A DNA stretch of 42,666 bases, from NCBI GenBank assembly GCA_013360825.1, contig JABWAY010000001.1:1-42666 (forward strand), read 5' to 3'. The translations under genes and the position numbers were made by a program. Shown piece after piece: positions 4,941-13,554 of the stretch. The DNA comes from Candidatus Brocadiia bacterium. GTDB taxonomy: Bacteria; Planctomycetota; MHYJ01; WSZJ01. The notes under the pieces were generated by a model. The model had not been told where the DNA came from. It did no database searches and saw nothing but the letters and a program-made list of their open reading frames with translations. Positions within the stretch are counted from its first letter, which is position 1, and the number at the start of each line of letters is the position of its first letter.

Positions 4941-5879
4941 TTGGCGGCATTCGGGTTCCTGGGGAATCCGGACGGCCCCCGGGGTGTCGTGGTGGGGTTC
5001 GGCCTCGTCCTGACCCTGGCGGGCGGTCTGCTCGCCGGGGGCGCGCGGGGAATCGCGCGGGCCGTGATCCGACGGTATCCCGGCGTCGCGAACTGGCCGT
5101 GGAGTCTGATCTCCGGGGCGGGTCTCTGCTCCGGAATCGGTCTCGTGATCATGCTCGTCAGCGTCTTCAACCCGGACGACGCGGCCTTTCCGTCCGGTCG
5201 CGGGGTGGCCTTCGCCGCGGGGCTGGTCTTTTTCCTCGCCGGCGTCGGCATCGCCGGTCCCACGCTCTCCCGCTCCGGCGACCGGGGTCCGCTCCAGGGG
5301 ATCGTCGTCGCCGCCCTCCTGACCGCATTCGCCGCAGTCCCCCTCGGGATCGCGATCCAGAGCCCCGATCTCCCCGTCGCGGTGGCCGCGGTCATCCTCG
5401 CTGGCGTCGCCCTGGCCGGCTGGGACTTCGTTCTGCGACGCTGGATCTCCCGGCTCGCCCTGCGGCTGCCGCTCTACGCCGGCGTGCTCCTCCTGGTGGG
5501 AGTCGGCGCCTCCCGCCTCACGAGGGCGACCGGACCGACCGCGCGAGGGCCCGTCTTCGAGCCTGTCACAGTCCGCGTGGAAGACCACTCCGTCGTGGCG
5601 GGGGAGCCCGTGAGGATTCATTTCGACCGGCCGCTCACGATGCCGTACGGATACCACTACCAGGTCGTCATCGTGCCCCGGGGCGTCGAGGTCTTCGCCT
5701 CAGGTCGCTGGTCCTATGTCAATCCCGGTGCCGCCTTCCTTGAGCTCGAGGCCCCCGACCAGCCGGGGGACTACGAAGTCCGTTTGAAACCGCACATGAA
5801 CGCCGTCCTTTCCTCGTGTCCCCTCTCCGTCCGCCCGGGCGAAACGCCGGAGCGGCCGCCGGATTTCGAGAAACGCTGA
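4941..5879 (+). CDS. multi-pass membrane protein with C-terminal beta-sandwich-like domain; start uncertain
   Basis: Track ORF 4332..5879, but its first ~200 aa are antisense to the IS630 remnant. The protein-like part begins near LKFLLRELFGSALAAGGIALAAF. Several hydrophobic helices are followed by VTVRVEDHSVVAGEPVRIHF...PGDYEVRLKP. There is no in-frame ATG or GTG just upstream. The first plausible starts are TTG 4941 or GTG 4989/4992. Confidence 0.55.
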   Translation: MAAFGFLGNPDGPRGVVVGFGLVLTLAGGLLAGGARGIARAVIRRYPGVANWPWSLISGAGLCSGIGLVIMLVSVFNPDDAAFPSGRGVAFAAGLVFFLAGVGIAGPTLSRSGDRGPLQGIVVAALLTAFAAVPLGIAIQSPDLPVAVAAVILAGVALAGWDFVLRRWISRLALRLPLYAGVLLLVGVGASRLTRATGPTARGPVFEPVTVRVEDHSVVAGEPVRIHFDRPLTMPYGYHYQVVIVPRGVEVFASGRWSYVNPGAAFLELEAPDQPGDYEVRLKPHMNAVLSSCPLSVRPGETPERPPDFEKR

Positions 5880-6168
5880 CGGGTCGGCGGCTGCGGATCC
5901 CGGGGCGATCGGGAGAAAAAAATATTTCCGCACCGCACCGAGGCCCGCGCGGGGAGTATTCTCGGGGGACGGCTTCGGGTTGTGCGCTGTGCAGGAATTT
6001 CGGCCCGAACCGTCTGAATTTCTGACGCCCGCAGTCCAGCGTCCCGCGCACCGCGGGGCGCGCAACTCCCTGTGTCATCCGCCCTTGCGGCGGATGGTCG
6101 GGCTCGACGCCGGGCGGGACCGGAATCTGCAACCTGTCGCTCCGCGCCCTTCCCGCGACACGATACCC

Positions 6169-8682
6169 ATGGAGATCCCCATGAATTCGATCCTTCGAAG
6201 TTGCGTCACGCTGACCTGGGCGCTGCGACTCGCCACGTTCGCCGCGGCGATCCTGGTCTGCGCCGCCTCGCTTCCCGCGCAGGATCCCGCGCCGGGGATC
6301 GACCCCGAGTTCGCGGCGCGCGAGGACCTGAAGCAGGCGCGCCGCCAGGTGGAGATGTGGCAGGAGATCCGCCGGGAGCATGCGAAACGGCGGGATGCGG
6401 CCGTCGCTCCGGCGGCACAGGCGGGGAAAGCGTATGAGACGGCGCGAGCGGAGCGCGAGCTCGCAGATCGGATCGACTCGGCGCTGCGCAACCCGGAAGC
6501 GAACCCTTCGGACAAGGTCAAGCGGTTGCTGGCGCACATCAAGAGTGTCGAGGACGATCTGGAGCGCCTCCGCACCACTCTCAAGGAGCGGCCGGGGCAC
6601 ATGGACACGGCGATGGCGCTGGGAGCCACGGCGAACTATCTGGAGCGGCTGTACGCGAAGCGCGACGGGCTGCTGAACGGGACGGGGGAGGAACGGGTCC
6701 GGCGCGAGGAGTGGAAGAAGGCGGCGGCCGAGGTGGCGCAGCGCAAGTTTGATGCGTACTGGGACGCCCGCGGGACGTGGTACCGGGCTTCGAACGAGCT
6801 CGCGTCCCTGCAGCGCCTGGTCGACGCGGACGACGCGGAGCTCGCGAAGGCGGAGGCCGCGCTGCTGGCGCTCGAGGTCGATGTGCTGGAGCGGTTCCGG
6901 AATGCGCCGAGGCCGCATCTCCAGCGGGCGTCTGCCTCGGCAGGCGGCGCGGTCGTGTACGACGCGAGCTGGGTTTCCGAGGAGGAAGTCCTCGACGAAC
7001 GGATCCGCTTCATGAGCAGGGCCGTGATCGCGCAGGCCGCCGAAATCGGCGTGCAGACGCGCCGGAGGGACAACGTTCTCGACGAGTACATCGCGGCGAG
7101 CAATGAGGCGATCGCGGCGATTCAGGCTTACGAGAGCGCGATCTGGACCCAGGCGTACCGGCAGATCGGGATCGACCTCCTCGACTGTGCCGTCTCTCTC
7201 GCCCTCGATGCGAAGGACGGCGGGGTGGCCGGCCTCGCCGTGGGGACCGGCGTGGAACTCGCGCACAAGCTCTACGAATGGGGCTCCGGGGACGTCGGCC
7301 GGAGGTATGACCTGCCCGCCTCCGGCGCGGCGGGCCCGCCTCCCGCGCACGACCCGACGACGTATGTGGGGGAGGCCGGGAAAGAAGCGATCAAGAGCGC
7401 GATCAAGGCCGGGCTCAAGGGGTTCATCGAGGGGACGCGTGCGGGGGCGGCGGACTACCGCCGGCTGAACGTCGCCCAGCCGCTGATCGAGGAGCTGTGG
7501 GTCGTGCTCAAGCGCCGCGTGATCTTCAACAACAGGGTCACGGAGGAGGCGATCGTCGTGGTCTTCCGGAAGACGTCGGAGACGCTCATCGTGCGGTCGA
7601 TGAAGGACCGCGTGAAGGGGGCGATGAATGCGTTCAGGGAGGGGCTGAAGAAGGGTCTCGTGGACGCGAAGGTGCTTCGCAGCATCGGGCGTTCGATGGC
7701 GCAGGCGGCCGTGAAGAACTTCATCCAGGAGATGGCCCGGTCCGAGCGCCTGCAGGCCTGGTACGAGTTTGCCGAGAAGGACGCCATCGCGCTCGAGATC
7801 TACCGGCAGATGCGCCAGGAGAGCAATCTCCTGCAGTTCGAGAAACTGCAGCTGGAGGCCTATCAGGAATACCTGCGCGAGCTCATGGCCGAACGGGCGC
7901 GGCTCAGCGGAACGCGCCGCCTCCGTTTCGACCGCGACGAGGCGGTTCCTGCCACCGCCCGCGCAGGGGACGGGTCGGTGGAGCTCGACCTCCGGCTGTC
8001 GTTCTCGAGGCCGGTGGAGACGGTGAGGGTGAAGGTCAACGGCGCCGAGATTGTCGGGTCGATCGGAGCGACGGAGTGGTCCGGAAAGGCGCGGCTGGCG
8101 GCCGGGATCGCCGAGGCCGCACTCTCCGTGGAGGCCGTGGACAGCCTCTCCCGGCAGGGAATCGACGCCGATCCCCACACGGTCCCGCAGTACAACACGG
8201 GGAATGACCGCTGGTCGGGATGGGAGAGGGGACCGGACAACACGCACACCGTCCGGCTGGGCGAGCGCAAGCCGGGCGTCTCCATCGTGCTGCTGATCGA
8301 CTGCTCGGGAAGCATGGGTGAGCACGGGCGGCTCAACAGTGCGAAAACGGCCGCGCGGAATGTCCTGAACCCCGACTCGCTCGGACCCGACGACGATGTC
8401 GCGCTCTGGACGTTTTCCGGCTCCGAGGCGCAGTTGCGCGTGCCCTTCACGTCGGATCCGGCCCGCGTCGTGGCCGCAGTCGACGCCCTGGGTGCCGACG
8501 GTGCGACCCCCCTGGCGCTCGGGATCTCCCGGTCGGGGGACTACCTGCTCTCCGTCGGCCGGAACCGGAAGAAGGTCCTGATCGTGCTCTCCGACGGCGA
8601 GGAGACGATGAACGGAAATCCCTTCGAGGCGATGCGCCTGCTCCGTGAACGTGGCGCCGTGGTCAGGGAGGGCGGCCGATGA
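6169..8682 (+). CDS. secreted/anchored long coiled-coil protein with C-terminal vWA domain (MIDAS intact, domain apparently truncated)
   Basis: Within ORF 5980..8682. ATG 6169 (or 6181) precedes the signal/anchor SILRSCVTLTWALRLATFAAAILVCAASLPAQ. About 700 aa are heptad-rich and charged. The vWA part is VSIVLLIDCSGSMG (DxSxS at 8299-8313), ADGATPL and LIVLSDGEET. The stop TGA overlaps the next ATG (ATGA at 8679-8682). Confidence 0.8.
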   Translation: MEIPMNSILRSCVTLTWALRLATFAAAILVCAASLPAQDPAPGIDPEFAAREDLKQARRQVEMWQEIRREHAKRRDAAVAPAAQAGKAYETARAERELADRIDSALRNPEANPSDKVKRLLAHIKSVEDDLERLRTTLKERPGHMDTAMALGATANYLERLYAKRDGLLNGTGEERVRREEWKKAAAEVAQRKFDAYWDARGTWYRASNELASLQRLVDADDAELAKAEAALLALEVDVLERFRNAPRPHLQRASASAGGAVVYDASWVSEEEVLDERIRFMSRAVIAQAAEIGVQTRRRDNVLDEYIAASNEAIAAIQAYESAIWTQAYRQIGIDLLDCAVSLALDAKDGGVAGLAVGTGVELAHKLYEWGSGDVGRRYDLPASGAAGPPPAHDPTTYVGEAGKEAIKSAIKAGLKGFIEGTRAGAADYRRLNVAQPLIEELWVVLKRRVIFNNRVTEEAIVVVFRKTSETLIVRSMKDRVKGAMNAFREGLKKGLVDAKVLRSIGRSMAQAAVKNFIQEMARSERLQAWYEFAEKDAIALEIYRQMRQESNLLQFEKLQLEAYQEYLRELMAERARLSGTRRLRFDRDEAVPATARAGDGSVELDLRLSFSRPVETVRVKVNGAEIVGSIGATEWSGKARLAAGIAEAALSVEAVDSLSRQGIDADPHTVPQYNTGNDRWSGWERGPDNTHTVRLGERKPGVSIVLLIDCSGSMGEHGRLNSAKTAARNVLNPDSLGPDDDVALWTFSGSEAQLRVPFTSDPARVVAAVDALGADGATPLALGISRSGDYLLSVGRNRKKVLIVLSDGEETMNGNPFEAMRLLRERGAVVREGGR

Positions 8683-10643
8683 GAACCCTGATTCTGCTCC
8701 TGTCCCTGGCGTGCGCCGCGGCCGCGCAGGACCATGTCGTGGAAGTCGGGAAACTCCCCTACGCCTTCAAGGTGGAGGCCCCCGGCGTCGGATATGTCAC
8801 CCTGGAATTCACGGATCGGCCGAAGAGCTTCAACCCGCGGATGGTGTTCGGGGAAGAGCGGGCCTGGCCGATCGTCGAAGAGCAGTGCGAAGCCCGCGTG
8901 GAGGGGGGAACGATCGACTTCGTCCTCTCGGACCGGTGGGGGACCGTCGCGACGGAGGCGATCAAGTTCCGCGTCGTTTTCACGCCGGAGGACGACCCGA
9001 GCGAACCGAACGGGGACTGGGAGCACGCCCGCGCGGTGCGGATCGGGGAAACGGTGTCGATGCGGATCCGGCCGGCGAAGGATCTCGACTGGCTCCGGGT
9101 GGAGGTCCCCGAGCCGGGATACCTGACGGCGGAGTTCGAGGGGATCAAGAACACCGTGGAGGCCGGGTTTTACCTCGACCCGACGCGGGAACTGACGACG
9201 AACCTTGCCCGGATCGACGTGGCCGGCCAGGTCCTGGTCCGCGTCCGGGAGCGGTGGGGGAATCCCCATCCGGAGCCGTTCCGGCTGACGTTCCGGTTCG
9301 AGCCGGAAACCGACCCGGCGGAGCCGAACGACAGGTCCGAGGACGCCGGCCCGCTGGAACTCGGGGAGTGGATGCACGCCCGCATCGCCCCGGCAGGGGA
9401 CGTGGACTGGTTCGAGGTGACGGTCGAGGATGCCGGCAGCTTCATCTGCGAGGCCGAGGAGCTGAAGGGATTCACCCCGGCGTGGGCGGCGTTCCGGGCC
9501 GGGGAGCGCGAGGCCGCGGCGAGCGGCGACGTCATGAACGTCCAGCCGGGGCGGTATCTGCTGCGCCTCACCGAGCGGTGGGGGAATGTGACCCCCCGGA
9601 ATGTCCTCGTCCGGGTCCGTTTCGTCCCGGAACCCGACGAGGCCTCGCCGAACGACGACCCGAAGGAGCCGGCGAGGATCGAACTCGGCCGGTGGTACGC
9701 AATGGCAGTTTCGAGGCCGGGGGATGTCGATCACGTCGTCTTCGAACTTCCGTCGCCGGCCAGGGTCTCGATCGACTTCCTCGGGTCGGTCCCGCGGGAT
9801 TTCTACGTCGCATTCCGCGCACCCGATGGATCCGAAACCCGGTGGGGGGACGGCCCGCGTGACCTCCCCGCGGGGACCTATCCGCTGGTCCTCCAGGCAA
9901 AATGGGGGCACTGGTCGGAAACCCCCTTTCGCTTCGCCGTGACGGCGAGCCCCGGTGACGATCCCGTGGAGCCCAATGACTCCCCGGAACTTGCCACGCC
10001 GCTCCAGGTCGGAACCGGGATCGACATCCGGCTCGGTCCGGGATCCGGTGACGTCGACTGGTACGCCGTCGAGATCCCCGGGGACGGCATCCTCTACGTG
10101 ATCACCTCGGAGGACTCAGGATGGCCGAAGTCGTGCGCGCTCGTCGAACTGCGCGACCCTGAAGGGAAGGAAGCCGGGAAACTCCGGATGGACCCCTATG
10201 GCGTGAACCGGTTCCATCCGGTCACGAAAGGGACCTGGCGCCTCCGCGTCTCTCCTCAGCAGAACCGCGTCCCGCCGCTCCAGACGCTCCGGCTGACGAC
10301 AGCGCTCGTCATCCCGTCGGCGGAGCCGTCCTCCACACCCGGCCTGCTCGACATCGCCGTCATCGGCCTCGACGTCGACGACTCCACCATGACCGCCCTC
10401 CGTGCCATGGCCTCGTCCGGCTCCGCTTCGTTCGCCAACACCACCGATCTCACTCAGTTGGAAAAGCAGATGCGCACGATCGTCGAGACGGGGAAGCGCG
10501 ACGCGGAGCGGAGGAACGCCCCGACGCCCGCGGGCGCAGAGCCACCCGGGACCGGCAGTCCCTGGGTTCGGTCGGTGGGAGGTGGCGTCGCGGGCCTGAT
10601 CATTCTCCTGATTCTCGTTTTCGTCTGGAGACGGAGCCGGTAG
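8679..10643 (+). CDS. secreted protein with tandem PPC (pre-peptidase C-terminal)-like repeats, vWA-tail-like segment and C-terminal TM anchor
   Basis: Signal peptide MRTLILLLSLACAAAAQ. Four clear units plus one degenerate unit of ~105 aa, each with (D/E)P.EPND...G......D(V/L)DW(F/Y/L).V.V and ending (R/K)WG....(F/V)R. C-terminal hydrophobic anchor GGGVAGLIILLILVFVWRRSR. Confidence 0.8.
   Translation: MRTLILLLSLACAAAAQDHVVEVGKLPYAFKVEAPGVGYVTLEFTDRPKSFNPRMVFGEERAWPIVEEQCEARVEGGTIDFVLSDRWGTVATEAIKFRVVFTPEDDPSEPNGDWEHARAVRIGETVSMRIRPAKDLDWLRVEVPEPGYLTAEFEGIKNTVEAGFYLDPTRELTTNLARIDVAGQVLVRVRERWGNPHPEPFRLTFRFEPETDPAEPNDRSEDAGPLELGEWMHARIAPAGDVDWFEVTVEDAGSFICEAEELKGFTPAWAAFRAGEREAAASGDVMNVQPGRYLLRLTERWGNVTPRNVLVRVRFVPEPDEASPNDDPKEPARIELGRWYAMAVSRPGDVDHVVFELPSPARVSIDFLGSVPRDFYVAFRAPDGSETRWGDGPRDLPAGTYPLVLQAKWGHWSETPFRFAVTASPGDDPVEPNDSPELATPLQVGTGIDIRLGPGSGDVDWYAVEIPGDGILYVITSEDSGWPKSCALVELRDPEGKEAGKLRMDPYGVNRFHPVTKGTWRLRVSPQQNRVPPLQTLRLTTALVIPSAEPSSTPGLLDIAVIGLDVDDSTMTALRAMASSGSASFANTTDLTQLEKQMRTIVETGKRDAERRNAPTPAGAEPPGTGSPWVRSVGGGVAGLIILLILVFVWRRSR
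8985..10313 (+). repeat. four tandem ~105-110-codon coding repeats (PPC-like units) inside the 8679..10643 CDS
   Basis: Approximate protein repeats: 103-207, 208-315, 316-423 and 424-545. They begin EDDPSEPNGDW / ETDPAEPNDRS / EPDEASPNDDP / GDDPVEPNDSP, and all contain a D.D(W/H) motif. A degenerate unit precedes them (aa ~18-102). Confidence 0.7.
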
Positions 10644-10667
10644 GAGTCGGGACGCCGCCCGGCGGGT

Positions 10668-12638
10668 CTACGACGAGTGGCTCGCCGCCGCGGCCAGGAC
10701 GGAAGCCTTCGATGAGACCAGTCGCCCGACCCGGCCGGTCCGCTTGAAGGCGGCCCAGATCGCACGCGGCCCGGACGTCGCTTCGACTCCCCGTCGCGCC
10801 CTGTCCGCGTGCGTTCCCGCCAGCGCCGCCTGGCCGTGCCGTTCGAACAGATCCAGGTGAAAGGCAGTCAGGATCACGCCGAGGTGGGTCAGCGCCTGCG
10901 GGAAGTTGCCGAGGTGGGCGTGGGTCTTCGGATCGATCTCCTCCGCGAACAGGTGGAGGTCGCCGGCGCGCGCGAGCAGGCGGTCGAAAAGCCCGCGTGC
11001 CTCCTCCGCCCTGCCCGTGACGAGGAGCGCGTCGGCGAGCCAGAAGGAGCAGACGAGGAAGGCTCCTTCGCCGCCGCGAACGCCGTCGTCGGTCCGGTAT
11101 CGCAGCAGGAAGTCTCCGGCGCCGAGTTCGCCCCGGATCGCCGCCACCGTCCGGAGGATGGCCTCCTCTCCTGCGGGGAAACCGAGCATCGGCAGGAGGA
11201 GGAGCGCCGCGTCCGTGCCGGGGAGGTCGTACGCCTGACGGAAATGCCCGTCCGCCGGCGAGACTCCCCGTGCCGACACCTCGCGGAGGATCGCCTCCCG
11301 GGCGGTCACCCATTCCGGACGTTCGCCGAGCAGCCGGCATGCCCGATCCATCGCCACCCAGGCCATCACCTTTCCGAAGACATGCTGTCTCGGCTCCCCG
11401 CGCATCTCCCAGAGCCCCTGTCCGGGTTCCTGCCAGTGGGCCGCCACAAAGTCCGCGAGCTGGGAGAAATACTTCTTCTGCTCCGGGCCAAACCTGCCGC
11501 CCAGGCTCGCGTGCGTCCAGGCCCAGTCGAGCACCTCCCCGAACACGTCGAGCTGTCGCTGTCGGAAGGCCGCGTTTCCCACCCGCACGGGCCGGCTCCC
11601 GCGGTACCCCTCGAGGTGCTCGAGAGCCTTCTCCTCCAGGGAACACTCCGCCCCGATGCCGTAGAGAATCTGAATCTCGCCGGGACTCTGCTGGCAGCAC
11701 TTCAGCAGATACCGCCCGAACTGCGCCGCCTCGCCGCTGTAGCCGAGCGCTGCGAACGCGAGCAGGCTCAGGCTGCCGTCGCGGAGCCAGCAGTACCGGT
11801 AGTCCCAGTTCCGCTCGCCGCCGATGTCCTCGGGAAGGGACGTCGTGGGGGCGGCGGCGATGGCCCCGGTGGGCGCGTAGGTCAGGAGCTTGAGGGCCAG
11901 GACGCTCCGCATCACCTGTTTCCGCCAGGGGCCGGCATAGCGGCAGTACGCCGACCATTCCGTCCAGAAGGCGCGTGTGATCGCGAGGAGCGCGGCGAGC
12001 GCGTCGTGAGTCGGCCGCGGGCTGGCGTCGCGGCTCACGACCAGGAAGCGGCGTTCGCCGGCGGCGAGTTCGGTCGTGCCGGAAGCGGAGTCGCGGTCGG
12101 CTGCGAGGGGAAGATCCGTGGACAGCCGGGCTCCGCCGGGGAGTTCGAAGCCGCCGTCGGAGGGGCGGAGATCCGGGTGTCGTCGAGCGAACTCCACGGA
12201 GAGACGGCAGGCGACCCGGAGCCGGACCCGACCGCGCGTGCACTCCACGATTCTCACGAACCACCCCGGCGCGTTCAGCCTGACGTAGTCGTGGACGCGC
12301 GCCCCGGGGACGCGGCCGACCGGCATGAAGTCGGTCAGCGTTGCGGTGCCGTCCGGTCCTTCGAGCGAACTGATGAGGATGTTGGTGTCGCCCTCGTACG
12401 TCCGGGTCATTCTCCCGCCGCCTTCGATCTCCGACGAGAGGAACCCCCCGTTCCCGGCATCGAGCATCCGGCAGAACACGGGATCCGCGTCGTGCCGCCC
12501 CAGGGCACACCAGTCCACGCTCCCGTCCCGCGCCACGAGGGCGTTTCCATGGCAGTCTCCGACGAGCGCATAGTCCTCGATCGGACGGTAACGCCTCCCG
12601 GAATCGGGGAACTGTGGCACGGGGCGATTGTGCGTCAT
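10668..12638 (-). CDS. glycoside hydrolase family 15 protein (glucoamylase/trehalase-like)
   Basis: Within ORF 10668..13484. ATG 12638 gives MTHNRPVPQF... GH15 hallmarks are YALVGDCHGNALVARDGSVDWCAL, GGERNWDYRYCWLRDGS and FLVCSFWLADAL. 656 aa. Confidence 0.9.
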   Translation of the reverse strand: MTHNRPVPQFPDSGRRYRPIEDYALVGDCHGNALVARDGSVDWCALGRHDADPVFCRMLDAGNGGFLSSEIEGGGRMTRTYEGDTNILISSLEGPDGTATLTDFMPVGRVPGARVHDYVRLNAPGWFVRIVECTRGRVRLRVACRLSVEFARRHPDLRPSDGGFELPGGARLSTDLPLAADRDSASGTTELAAGERRFLVVSRDASPRPTHDALAALLAITRAFWTEWSAYCRYAGPWRKQVMRSVLALKLLTYAPTGAIAAAPTTSLPEDIGGERNWDYRYCWLRDGSLSLLAFAALGYSGEAAQFGRYLLKCCQQSPGEIQILYGIGAECSLEEKALEHLEGYRGSRPVRVGNAAFRQRQLDVFGEVLDWAWTHASLGGRFGPEQKKYFSQLADFVAAHWQEPGQGLWEMRGEPRQHVFGKVMAWVAMDRACRLLGERPEWVTAREAILREVSARGVSPADGHFRQAYDLPGTDAALLLLPMLGFPAGEEAILRTVAAIRGELGAGDFLLRYRTDDGVRGGEGAFLVCSFWLADALLVTGRAEEARGLFDRLLARAGDLHLFAEEIDPKTHAHLGNFPQALTHLGVILTAFHLDLFERHGQAALAGTHADRARRGVEATSGPRAIWAAFKRTGRVGRLVSSKASVLAAAASHSS

Positions 12639-13057: not shown

Positions 13058-13554
13058 GCGAACCTCCCCGCGAGCCAGAACACCCCGTTGACGGCCGCCA
13101 CACCGGCGGCCATGAACCCGATCGTCGCCAGGAGACTCCCCCTGGACCCCTGGGCGAGCCCGACGATCGAGTGCCCGCTCGTTCAGCCCCCCGCCCAGCG
13201 GGCGCCGTACCCCGCGAGCGTGCCGCCGACGAACAGGAACGCCAGCCGGACGACCGGATGGCCGCTGATCCCGCTGTCAAAGTCCCCCATCGACGTGACC
13301 CACCCGACCTTCCCCGCCAGCGCCGCCCCGAGGAGCCCGCCGAGCGGGATCCCCGCGATGAACCAGATCCGCCAGGGGGCCTTGTAAGCGCTCTGCTGGA
13401 AATACCGGATCCGCGGGGCGATCCTGGCGCAGAGCCCTCCGATCCCGGTCGACACGCCGACCGGCTTCCCGGTCGCAAACGCAAACGCGGTCACGATCAG
13501 TCCGATCGCGGACCCGGCGACCCACCACGGCCAGGGTTCGGATAGCCATTTCAT
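13054..13554 (-). CDS. YeeE/YedE family sulfur-transport membrane protein with in-frame TGA (candidate Sec) at 13183-13185
   Basis: Track ORF 13183..13554 ends ...GYGARWAGG*. The frame continues for 42 codons, TSGHSIVGLAQGSRGSLLATIGFMAAGVAAVNGVFWLAGRFA, to TGA 13054-13056, which overlaps the next gene's ATG (ATGA). The joined GG-[TGA]-TSGH...SL.AT..FM matches the short YeeE/YedE signature G.GCTSGH...RSL.AT..FM. GGGAGG RBS about 10 nt upstream of ATG 13554. Confidence 0.65.
13117..13171 (-). promoter_or_regulatory. candidate SECIS-like extended stem-loop downstream of TGA 13183-13185
   Basis: In mRNA sense, CUCGAUCGUCG pairs with CGACGAUCGGG: 9 Watson-Crick pairs plus one U.G and one C-G. This encloses an upper hairpin CCAGGGG-GAGU-CUCCUGG. 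The upper hairpin needs a G.U pair that would be an A.C mismatch on the opposite strand, so the structure is specific to the sense strand. Confidence 0.4.

Follow-up and report, generated by a model that had tools for sequence, protein, structure and literature searches.

One von Willebrand factor A domain split over two adjacent planctomycete genes: a candidate docking pair with a wider family behind it

Von Willebrand factor A (vWA) domains, with their metal ion-dependent adhesion site (MIDAS), are among the most studied adhesion and assembly modules. The locus described here raises the question of why an exported protein should end part of the way through such a domain, and whether the rest of the fold is encoded next to it. 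It lies in a window of 42,666 nucleotides (nt), by which we mean the whole stretch of DNA that was analyzed (positions 1 to 42,666 of contig JABWAY010000001.1, assembly GCA_013360825.1, from a Candidatus Brocadiia bacterium of the phylum Planctomycetota), and it consists of two genes, P1 and P2. The initial annotation had presented these as two co-directional open reading frames (ORFs) with an ATGA overlap, which was borne out by the ORF positions and by coding-type G+C contents at the codon positions. Judged from the sequences, the most fitting description of the locus is a docking pair of two genes that divide a vWA between them, and a wider family stands behind it. We propose that the vWA is completed in trans after export, docking the cargo P1 onto the anchor P2, and we give this reading a probability of roughly 65%.

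The C-terminus of P1 was assigned to the vWA fold by Pfam (VWA_2, PF13519, 58.3 bits; VWA, PF00092, 45.2 bits). The VWA match covers profile positions 2 to 132 of 174 and ends at the C-terminus of the protein, the six-stranded fold being incomplete in P1. The C-terminal vWA with an intact MIDAS that had been annotated here is therefore right as to the three motifs, DCSGS (amino acids [aa] 711-715; 8299-8313), GATPL (aa 778-782; 8500-8514) and SDGEET (aa 808-813; 8590-8607), but the domain that holds them is truncated. All five MIDAS residues sit in P1 (in DCSGS, the Thr of GATPL and the Asp of SDGEET) and are invariant across five P1 orthologues. All matches of the P1 model in Foldseek were to vWA domains, alone or within multidomain proteins, and ~135 to 150 columns were aligned to solved vWA domains of ~157 to 199 residues. 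The tail of P2, LLDIAVIGLDVDDSTMTALRAMASSGSASFANTTDLTQLEKQMRTIVE, located just ahead of its membrane helix, shows the usual final strand-helix-strand-helix pattern of a vWA. When P1 aa 691-837 were joined to P2 aa 549-620, the Pfam VWA match grew to positions 2 to 170 of 174, and its score from 49.4 to 55.8 bits.

Both proteins were also aligned to hidden Markov models (HMMs) of unsplit vWA domains. The first HMM was made from three such domains of other genomes of the phylum, which had been found through their similarity to P2; for this reason we made another, the second HMM, of 21 unsplit vWA domains that come from many phyla and were retrieved by N-terminal motifs only. On the first HMM, five P1 orthologues matched positions ~3 to 142 and six P2 orthologues matched from ~142-144 to ~186-192 (window pair: P1 3-140, P2 143-189). 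On the second, P1 matched 4 to 131/137 and P2 from ~135-138 to ~185-188, with the P2 orthologue P0005 aligning from 123 (window pair: P1 4-136, P2 138-185). The two sets of matches abut, P1 orthologues reaching up to ~137-142 and P2 orthologues starting from ~136-143. The C-piece of P2 scored 15 to 28 bits, compared to 5.5 to 9.7 bits for the best of 1000 shuffles (0 of 1000 reached the C-piece score), and other windows of P2 scored ≤0.4 bits against the vWA HMM. Furthermore, a 62-position profile of six P2 tails had a sole significant match in the PDB, the VWFA-domain protein 9e5c (E=0.0025, over α5-β6-α6), and the alignment of the joined P1+P2 profile with residues 127-220 (of 223) of the complement factor B vWA runs through the junction. 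In AlphaFold2 models of the single proteins, the vWA part of P1 reached only a moderate confidence (pLDDT ~60-80), and the C-piece of P2 (aa 548-593) fell below 50. A low-confidence C-piece beside a vWA part that models worse than usual would be compatible with a split domain, and is no proof of one.

P1 and P2 have few close relatives. In Planctomycetota and Omnitrophota together, eight lineages have an adjacent, same-strand P1-P2 pair, with identities as low as 25%, and the pair was seen in every contig with enough sequence. The pairing of a vWA protein with a PPC protein pointed out in the initial annotation thus withstood a neighborhood test. Since the other neighboring genes vary from one pair locus to another, the module comprises the P1 and P2 genes only. 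In a Planctomycetia metagenome-assembled genome (L001-L004), the two proteins have 824 and 656 aa and are 64% and 51% identical to P1 and P2 of the window, and the genes overlap by 4 nt. Metagenome loci encode pairs of 812 and 643 aa (L005, 25-nt gap), 809 and 666 aa (L007, 41-nt gap) and 828 and 667 aa (L009, overlapping genes). In genome G065, from another family of the phylum, a P1-like protein with a different, non-helical head is encoded with a 19-nt overlap to a 514-aa P2-like protein of three modules (L036); the idea, formed by eye, that this head is clostripain-like was unsupported by Pfam. An Omnitrophica genome also carries a P1-like and a P2-like protein (L044). In the window and in L001, L005, L007, L009, L036 and L044, gene 1 ends after α4 and gene 2 encodes a signal peptide and β5 to α6. 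The P1 orthologues all stop at the same point of the vWA, and the P2 orthologues all keep the C-piece, the linker, the membrane helix and the basic tail. The pair occurs only here and there: a search for the P1 head was positive in 2 of the 8 genomes of the genus and negative in all 13 further relatives searched, and full-length P2 was found in 0 of 400 other sampled genomes of the phylum, the other matches there being PPC-type modules in unrelated large proteins.

Proteins ending in this way are not confined to P1 and its orthologues. A profile search with the P1 alignment over 1.84 billion cluster representatives identified 63 proteins at E≤1e-30. Among the best 150 representatives, 89 end at a truncated vWA; 46 of these are P1-like; the N-terminal parts of the other 43 are unrelated, and their match is limited to the vWA region or its immediate upstream flank. 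Many of these 43 stop ~10 residues past DGEETCGGDP. Pattern searches of genome and metagenome contigs revealed a permuted form of the pair, which is common in metagenomes. Here, gene 1 carries various heads and ends in a truncated vWA ~10 aa past DGEETCGGDP, and gene 2 encodes a signal peptide, a short Pro-rich linker and then the vWA C-piece (e.g., IEFHIIGFGVDxATxQQLQQIAAAAGGxYYDA). This form was found at one genome locus (L041:2711-6117, from a Planctomycetaceae genome) and at least 14 metagenome loci; the C-piece was detected by HMM in L121-L128, L131, L133 and L134, and is visible by eye in L130, L145, L150 and L151. What follows the permuted C-piece differs between loci, with genuine PPC arrays in L041, L125 and L128 (PF04151, 57 to 77 bits), an S-layer domain protein in L133 (PF07752, 518 bits), a repeat protein without family assignment in L127, and only a linker and membrane helix in L151. 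The gene-1 heads of L130, L131 and L133 (L133:1471-5498) contain SH3_3 with CHAP/NlpC-P60 and phage lysozyme domains, or Hydrolase_2, or Peptidase_M23, and these loci look like peptidoglycan hydrolases docked on an S-layer, possibly in an archaeon. The N- and C-pieces stay adjacent while the parts attached to them change, and the C-piece is located toward the N-terminal end of some carriers and toward the C-terminal end of others; a distribution of this kind would be difficult to account for if the two pieces were not mutually dependent.

Some further variants were observed among these proteins. Five large ones (P0046 of 1628 aa, P0064, P0099, P0104 and P0147) have extra N-terminal regions fused to a cassette of an Ig-like domain and a truncated vWA, several with HExxH. 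By eye, the heads of P0064 and P0099 had been taken for metalloproteases; HExxH motifs are present, but Pfam gave these two heads no assignment and so did not support the idea. The P1-like proteins of L042:1784-4924, P0059, P0070 and P0075, one of them from a Robiginitomaculum genome, run past the truncation point with VRVIGYGAG and a low-complexity Pro/Glu/Lys linker, which in L042, P0070 and P0075 is followed by a conserved C-terminal domain of ~110 aa. Such ends may be a third way to finish or replace the C-terminus of the vWA.

Unsplit relatives of the domain were found as well. In P0081, an unsplit vWA is followed by a membrane helix. The proteins of L139:2209-4188 and L142:2-1312 have an HExxH head and a complete vWA, after which come a membrane helix, a linker rich in Pro and an FHA domain on the cytoplasmic side, a layout which suggests that some members signal across the membrane, and they carry an insertion of 15 to 21 aa in the α4-β5 loop, exactly at the split site. 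In L135, L137 and L140, the complete vWA is followed by repeats that, by eye, look like the TPR type. An alphaproteobacterial contig (L106:3-3356) has a second vWA that is interrupted midway by an in-frame stop, with HMM positions 5-87 before and 90-189 after it in the same frame; this stop may represent a pseudogene, a sequencing error or a recoded stop, and is unrelated to the split between α4 and β5.

In the mechanism that we propose, P1 and P2 would be two Sec-exported subunits of one extracytoplasmic complex, to which P1 would give β1-β4 and α1-α4 with the five MIDAS residues, and P2 would give β5-α5-β6-α6. P2 would stay in the cytoplasmic membrane as a type I protein, and its basic tail agrees with this orientation, being inside. 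P1, which would have no anchor once its signal peptide is cleaved, would be tethered at the membrane by completion of the vWA, beside the five-module stalk of P2. In the vWA fold, the α4-β5 loop and both termini are on one and the same face; with the break in this loop, head, PPC array and anchor would all extend from there, leaving the MIDAS face free for a ligand. The cell-surface location proposed in the initial annotation is in line with this, as the sequences of P1 and P2 fit an extracytoplasmic, membrane-anchored placement; adhesion or sensing, the roles suggested along with it, are possible guesses.

The relatives with hydrolase heads and with PPC, S-layer or bare-anchor partners suggest a general device for docking cargo to anchors. 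The cargo heads seen comprise the helical head of P1, lysozyme/CHAP/M23 cell wall hydrolases and HExxH-motif heads, and the anchors or scaffolds comprise membrane helices, PPC arrays and an S-layer protein. We lean, though only slightly, toward a widespread natural fragment-complementation system, in which bacteria, and probably archaea, would export a cargo with two-thirds of a vWA and an anchor with the remaining third, the two locking together outside the cytoplasm and rebuilding the MIDAS. The window pair would then be the membrane-anchored PPC version of this surface-display mechanism.

The unsplit relatives in which a head, a vWA and a membrane helix follow one another (P0081, and L139 and L142 with their loop insertions) also fit a different history, in which an ancestor with head, vWA and anchor was broken by insertion of the PPC array, leaving products that are separate or interact through other surfaces. 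The vWA piece of P1 would then be a stable sub-domain or a disordered tail, and that of P2 a juxtamembrane stalk. Such a relic would also accord with the physical complementation of P1 by P2 being an inference from sequence. However, half of the sheet is not expected to be stable, vWA-specific residues are kept in both pieces across lineages that are only 21 to 36% identical overall, the MIDAS residues are invariant, and the pieces remain in adjacent genes even where the C-piece is N-terminal in its partner or attached to unrelated domains. We disfavor a fission relic because of these conserved residues, the invariant MIDAS and the permuted architectures, and consider it unlikely. The position of the 4-nt overlap, exactly at the domain interruption, could instead reflect a programmed frameshift or readthrough at ATGA that yields a single protein with a large PPC insertion in its vWA; insertions into single-chain vWA domains are tolerated, as shown by the 9-kDa insert of AhLap (PMC12077191). 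This is very improbable, given that a typical signal peptide starts P2 in every orthologue and that 25 to 41 nt lie between the genes in other lineages, so that no single frameshift joins them; moreover, a Shine-Dalgarno-like run precedes the P2 start, and the P2 frame opens only 10 codons 5' of its ATG. Still less credible is a single gene that was disrupted by a recent frameshift or by a mistake in sequencing or assembly. The source is a fragmented metagenome-assembled genome, but the same break is present in independent NCBI, JGI, ENA and Logan assemblies at 25 to 64% identity, which excludes an artifact or pseudogene in our view, and both ORFs have a coding-type G+C content at the third codon position (GC3).

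Several points weigh against completion of the vWA in trans. In two metagenome contigs from two JGI samples (L011:1-340 and L012:1-386), P2 is preceded only by a P1 tail, a remnant of ~85 aa with unrelated sequence containing stop codons upstream of it. P2 may persist there without full-length P1, as the result of a 5' deletion in P1, or these may be chimeric artifacts at contig ends. The scores of the C-piece are modest (10 to 28 bits), and the orthologue sets are small (n=5 for P1 and n=6 for P2). The first HMM is circular via P2, a circularity of which the second HMM, the Pfam test and the PDB search are free. Signal peptides and membrane helix were recognized by visual inspection of the sequences and not by a prediction program, the AlphaFold2 models cover P1 and P2 as single chains only, and the argument from loop geometry derives from general knowledge of the vWA fold and not from a model of P1 or P2.

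The features of the locus are collected in Table 1.

Table 1. Coordinates of the P1-P2 locus, with the ORF upstream of it (window positions).
Feature	Coordinates	Strand	Size or residues	Basis or remark
Upstream membrane-protein ORF	4941..5879	+		Outside the module; no Pfam or NCBIfam match
P1 gene	6169..8682	+	837 aa	
P1 signal peptide	6169..6279	+	aa 1-37	Predicted cleavage between LPA and QD, read by eye; AxA followed by Q(D/E) in orthologues too
P1 helical head	6304..7902	+	aa 46-578	AlphaFold2: long helices, one β-hairpin, low-confidence middle
P1 Ig-like β-sandwich	7915..8142	+	aa 583-658	AlphaFold2, pLDDT ~85
vWA N-piece, β1 to α4, in P1	8242..8679	+	aa 692-837	Pfam, unsplit-vWA HMMs, Foldseek
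Coupling junction	8665..8682	+		AGGGAGG Shine-Dalgarno-like run in the P1 tail, ATGA stop/start overlap
P2 gene	8679..10643	+	654 aa	
P2 signal peptide	8679..8726	+	aa 1-16	Predicted cleavage between AAA and QD, read by eye; conserved in orthologues
Five tandem PPC/collagen-binding-domain-like β-sandwich modules of P2	8727..10316	+	aa 17-546	Repeats, AlphaFold2, Foldseek, weak Pfam PPC
vWA C-piece, β5-α5-β6-α6, in P2	10344..10496	+	aa 556-606 (LLDIAVIGLDVDDSTMTALRAMASSGSASFANTTDLTQLEKQMRTIVE...)	Unsplit-vWA HMMs, PDB profile match, shuffles
P2 transmembrane helix and basic cytoplasmic tail RRSR	10575..10640	+	helix aa 633-650	By eye; conserved; AlphaFold2 helix 629-653

The large N-terminal part of P1 had been annotated as a coiled coil of ~700 aa. 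A long helical region is indeed present, but it amounts to a helical head of ~530 aa and is followed by an Ig-like β-sandwich. In the AlphaFold2 model of P1, given in P0013 numbering (adding 4 gives the 837-aa frame), long helices span 42-240 and are followed by a β-hairpin (GGAVVYDASWVSEE, 6943-6984) and a further long helix; residues 340-514 are of low confidence, a helix covers 496-574, and the Ig-like sandwich covers 579-654. As judged by eye, proteins with other heads likewise have a stretch matching this Ig-like region ahead of their truncated vWA. A seven-sequence profile of the head gave only coiled-coil noise, such as vimentin, against the PDB and Pfam. A ClyA-like pore-former was considered for aa 320-365 and dropped, the segment being charged and amphipathic and having no such fold match.

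P2 begins with MRTLILLLSLACAAAA, after which the predicted cleavage leaves QD. The initial description of a secreted protein with a C-terminal transmembrane anchor agrees with the signal peptide and the membrane helix read from its sequence, both kept in the orthologues. Its modules are ~105 aa each. M2 to M5 are 24 to 40% identical to one another (E down to 1e-17) and share DPxEPND and GDVDW anchors, and M1 matches them weakly; RWG is also kept in M1 to M3. AlphaFold2 modeled P2 alone as five β-sandwiches (aa 17-545) with a pLDDT of ~80 to 93 over most of their length, and lower in the last module. The top Foldseek match of P2 was the tandem collagen-binding domains s3a-s3b of ColG (5iku, E=7.8e-9), followed by CUB-type sandwiches. 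In Pfam, PPC (PF04151) matched aa 458-525 with 19.8 bits (E=0.0015), below the gathering score of 25.9 bits. Because the fold-level match to ColG is significant but the Pfam match is below threshold, we call the modules PPC-like and claim no Pfam membership; the tandem PPC-like modules annotated earlier stand as five modeled repeats.

The codon-position G+C contents (GC1/GC2/GC3) are 0.70/0.50/0.87 for the P1 ORF and 0.69/0.50/0.86 for the P2 ORF, in a locus of ~69 to 70% G+C. The public protein collection holds P1 in an 833-aa version, starting at the ATG at 6181. The P1 stop overlaps the P2 start in ATGA at 8679-8682, and AGGGAGG (8665-8671) lies 8 to 14 nt 5' of the P2 start. Promoter and terminator scans over 5700-10900 found none. 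The host genome (532 contigs, 88% complete) has a single copy each of the P1 and P2 genes and no second truncated vWA of the P1 type.

The initial annotation had also pointed to a multi-pass membrane protein immediately upstream of P1. The ORF is there, but it is not conserved with the pair: it is absent upstream of the pair in L001, L005, L007 and L009, which rules it out as a component of the module, and among 20 relatives only G402 has a homologue of it, a genome in which no P1 head was found. The remaining neighbors, S41 peptidase, AhpC/TSA and DsbD_N proteins upstream and GH15, a sulfur-transport fragment and HlyD downstream, are encoded on the opposite strand and seem to have no relation to the pair. 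A short ORF at 13183-13554 (− strand) matches only the C-terminal part of Pfam Sulf_transp.

If the vWA is indeed completed in trans, the pair would represent a new route by which cargo, peptidoglycan hydrolases among it, is attached after export to membrane anchors, PPC stalks or S-layers. It would also explain the large group of predicted proteins that end in an apparently truncated vWA (89 of the best 150), and would offer protein engineers a genetically encoded split-domain pair of natural origin for use in the periplasm or at the surface.

How does the pair compare with systems already described? The initial annotation did not recognize the combination, and Pfam, NCBIfam and PDB profiles assign neither P1 nor P2 to a known system. 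The MoxR-vWA, BatA-BatB and Mg-chelatase D-type systems were considered and rejected, with no AAA+ gene beside the pair in L001, L005 and L007 and with differing neighbors in the window; the NCBIfam chelatase and BatB matches of P1 are far below cut-off and cover the vWA part only. Full-text searches of the literature found no description of a split vWA or of a vWA domain combined with a PPC domain, and no case is known to us of a single vWA whose two pieces belong to different proteins, each exported separately. The single-chain vWA membrane proteins (P0081, L139 and L142) share with the pair the motifs DxSGSM, TPL, DGxETCGGxP and VIGFDV...GGG.Y, as well as the linker and membrane helix directly after the vWA. 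They differ in being one chain, whereas P1 ends in the α4-β5 loop, and the rest of the domain is found in the next gene behind a signal peptide and a five-module array.

In donor-strand complementation of chaperone-usher pili and in split inteins, an incomplete fold is likewise completed by a segment of another polypeptide, after export or translation. The folds are unrelated, however, and pili donate one strand, whereas P2 would donate a β-α-β-α unit of ~50 residues. With the PPC/collagen-binding domains of secreted peptidases (PF04151; ColG 5iku), P2 has in common the β-sandwich and the (D/E)PxEPND ... GDxDW motifs, but it has no peptidase, its modules are sub-threshold in Pfam, and the array is continued by a vWA fragment and a membrane anchor. 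The nearest described case that we found is the RTX adhesin AhLap of Aeromonas hydrophila, a bacterial surface protein in which the vWFA is interrupted by a 9-kDa insert and later completed within one chain (PMC12077191). In AhLap, the interruption is near the middle of the fold of one polypeptide, whereas the P1-P2 pair consists of two polypeptides, each exported on its own, with the break after α4.

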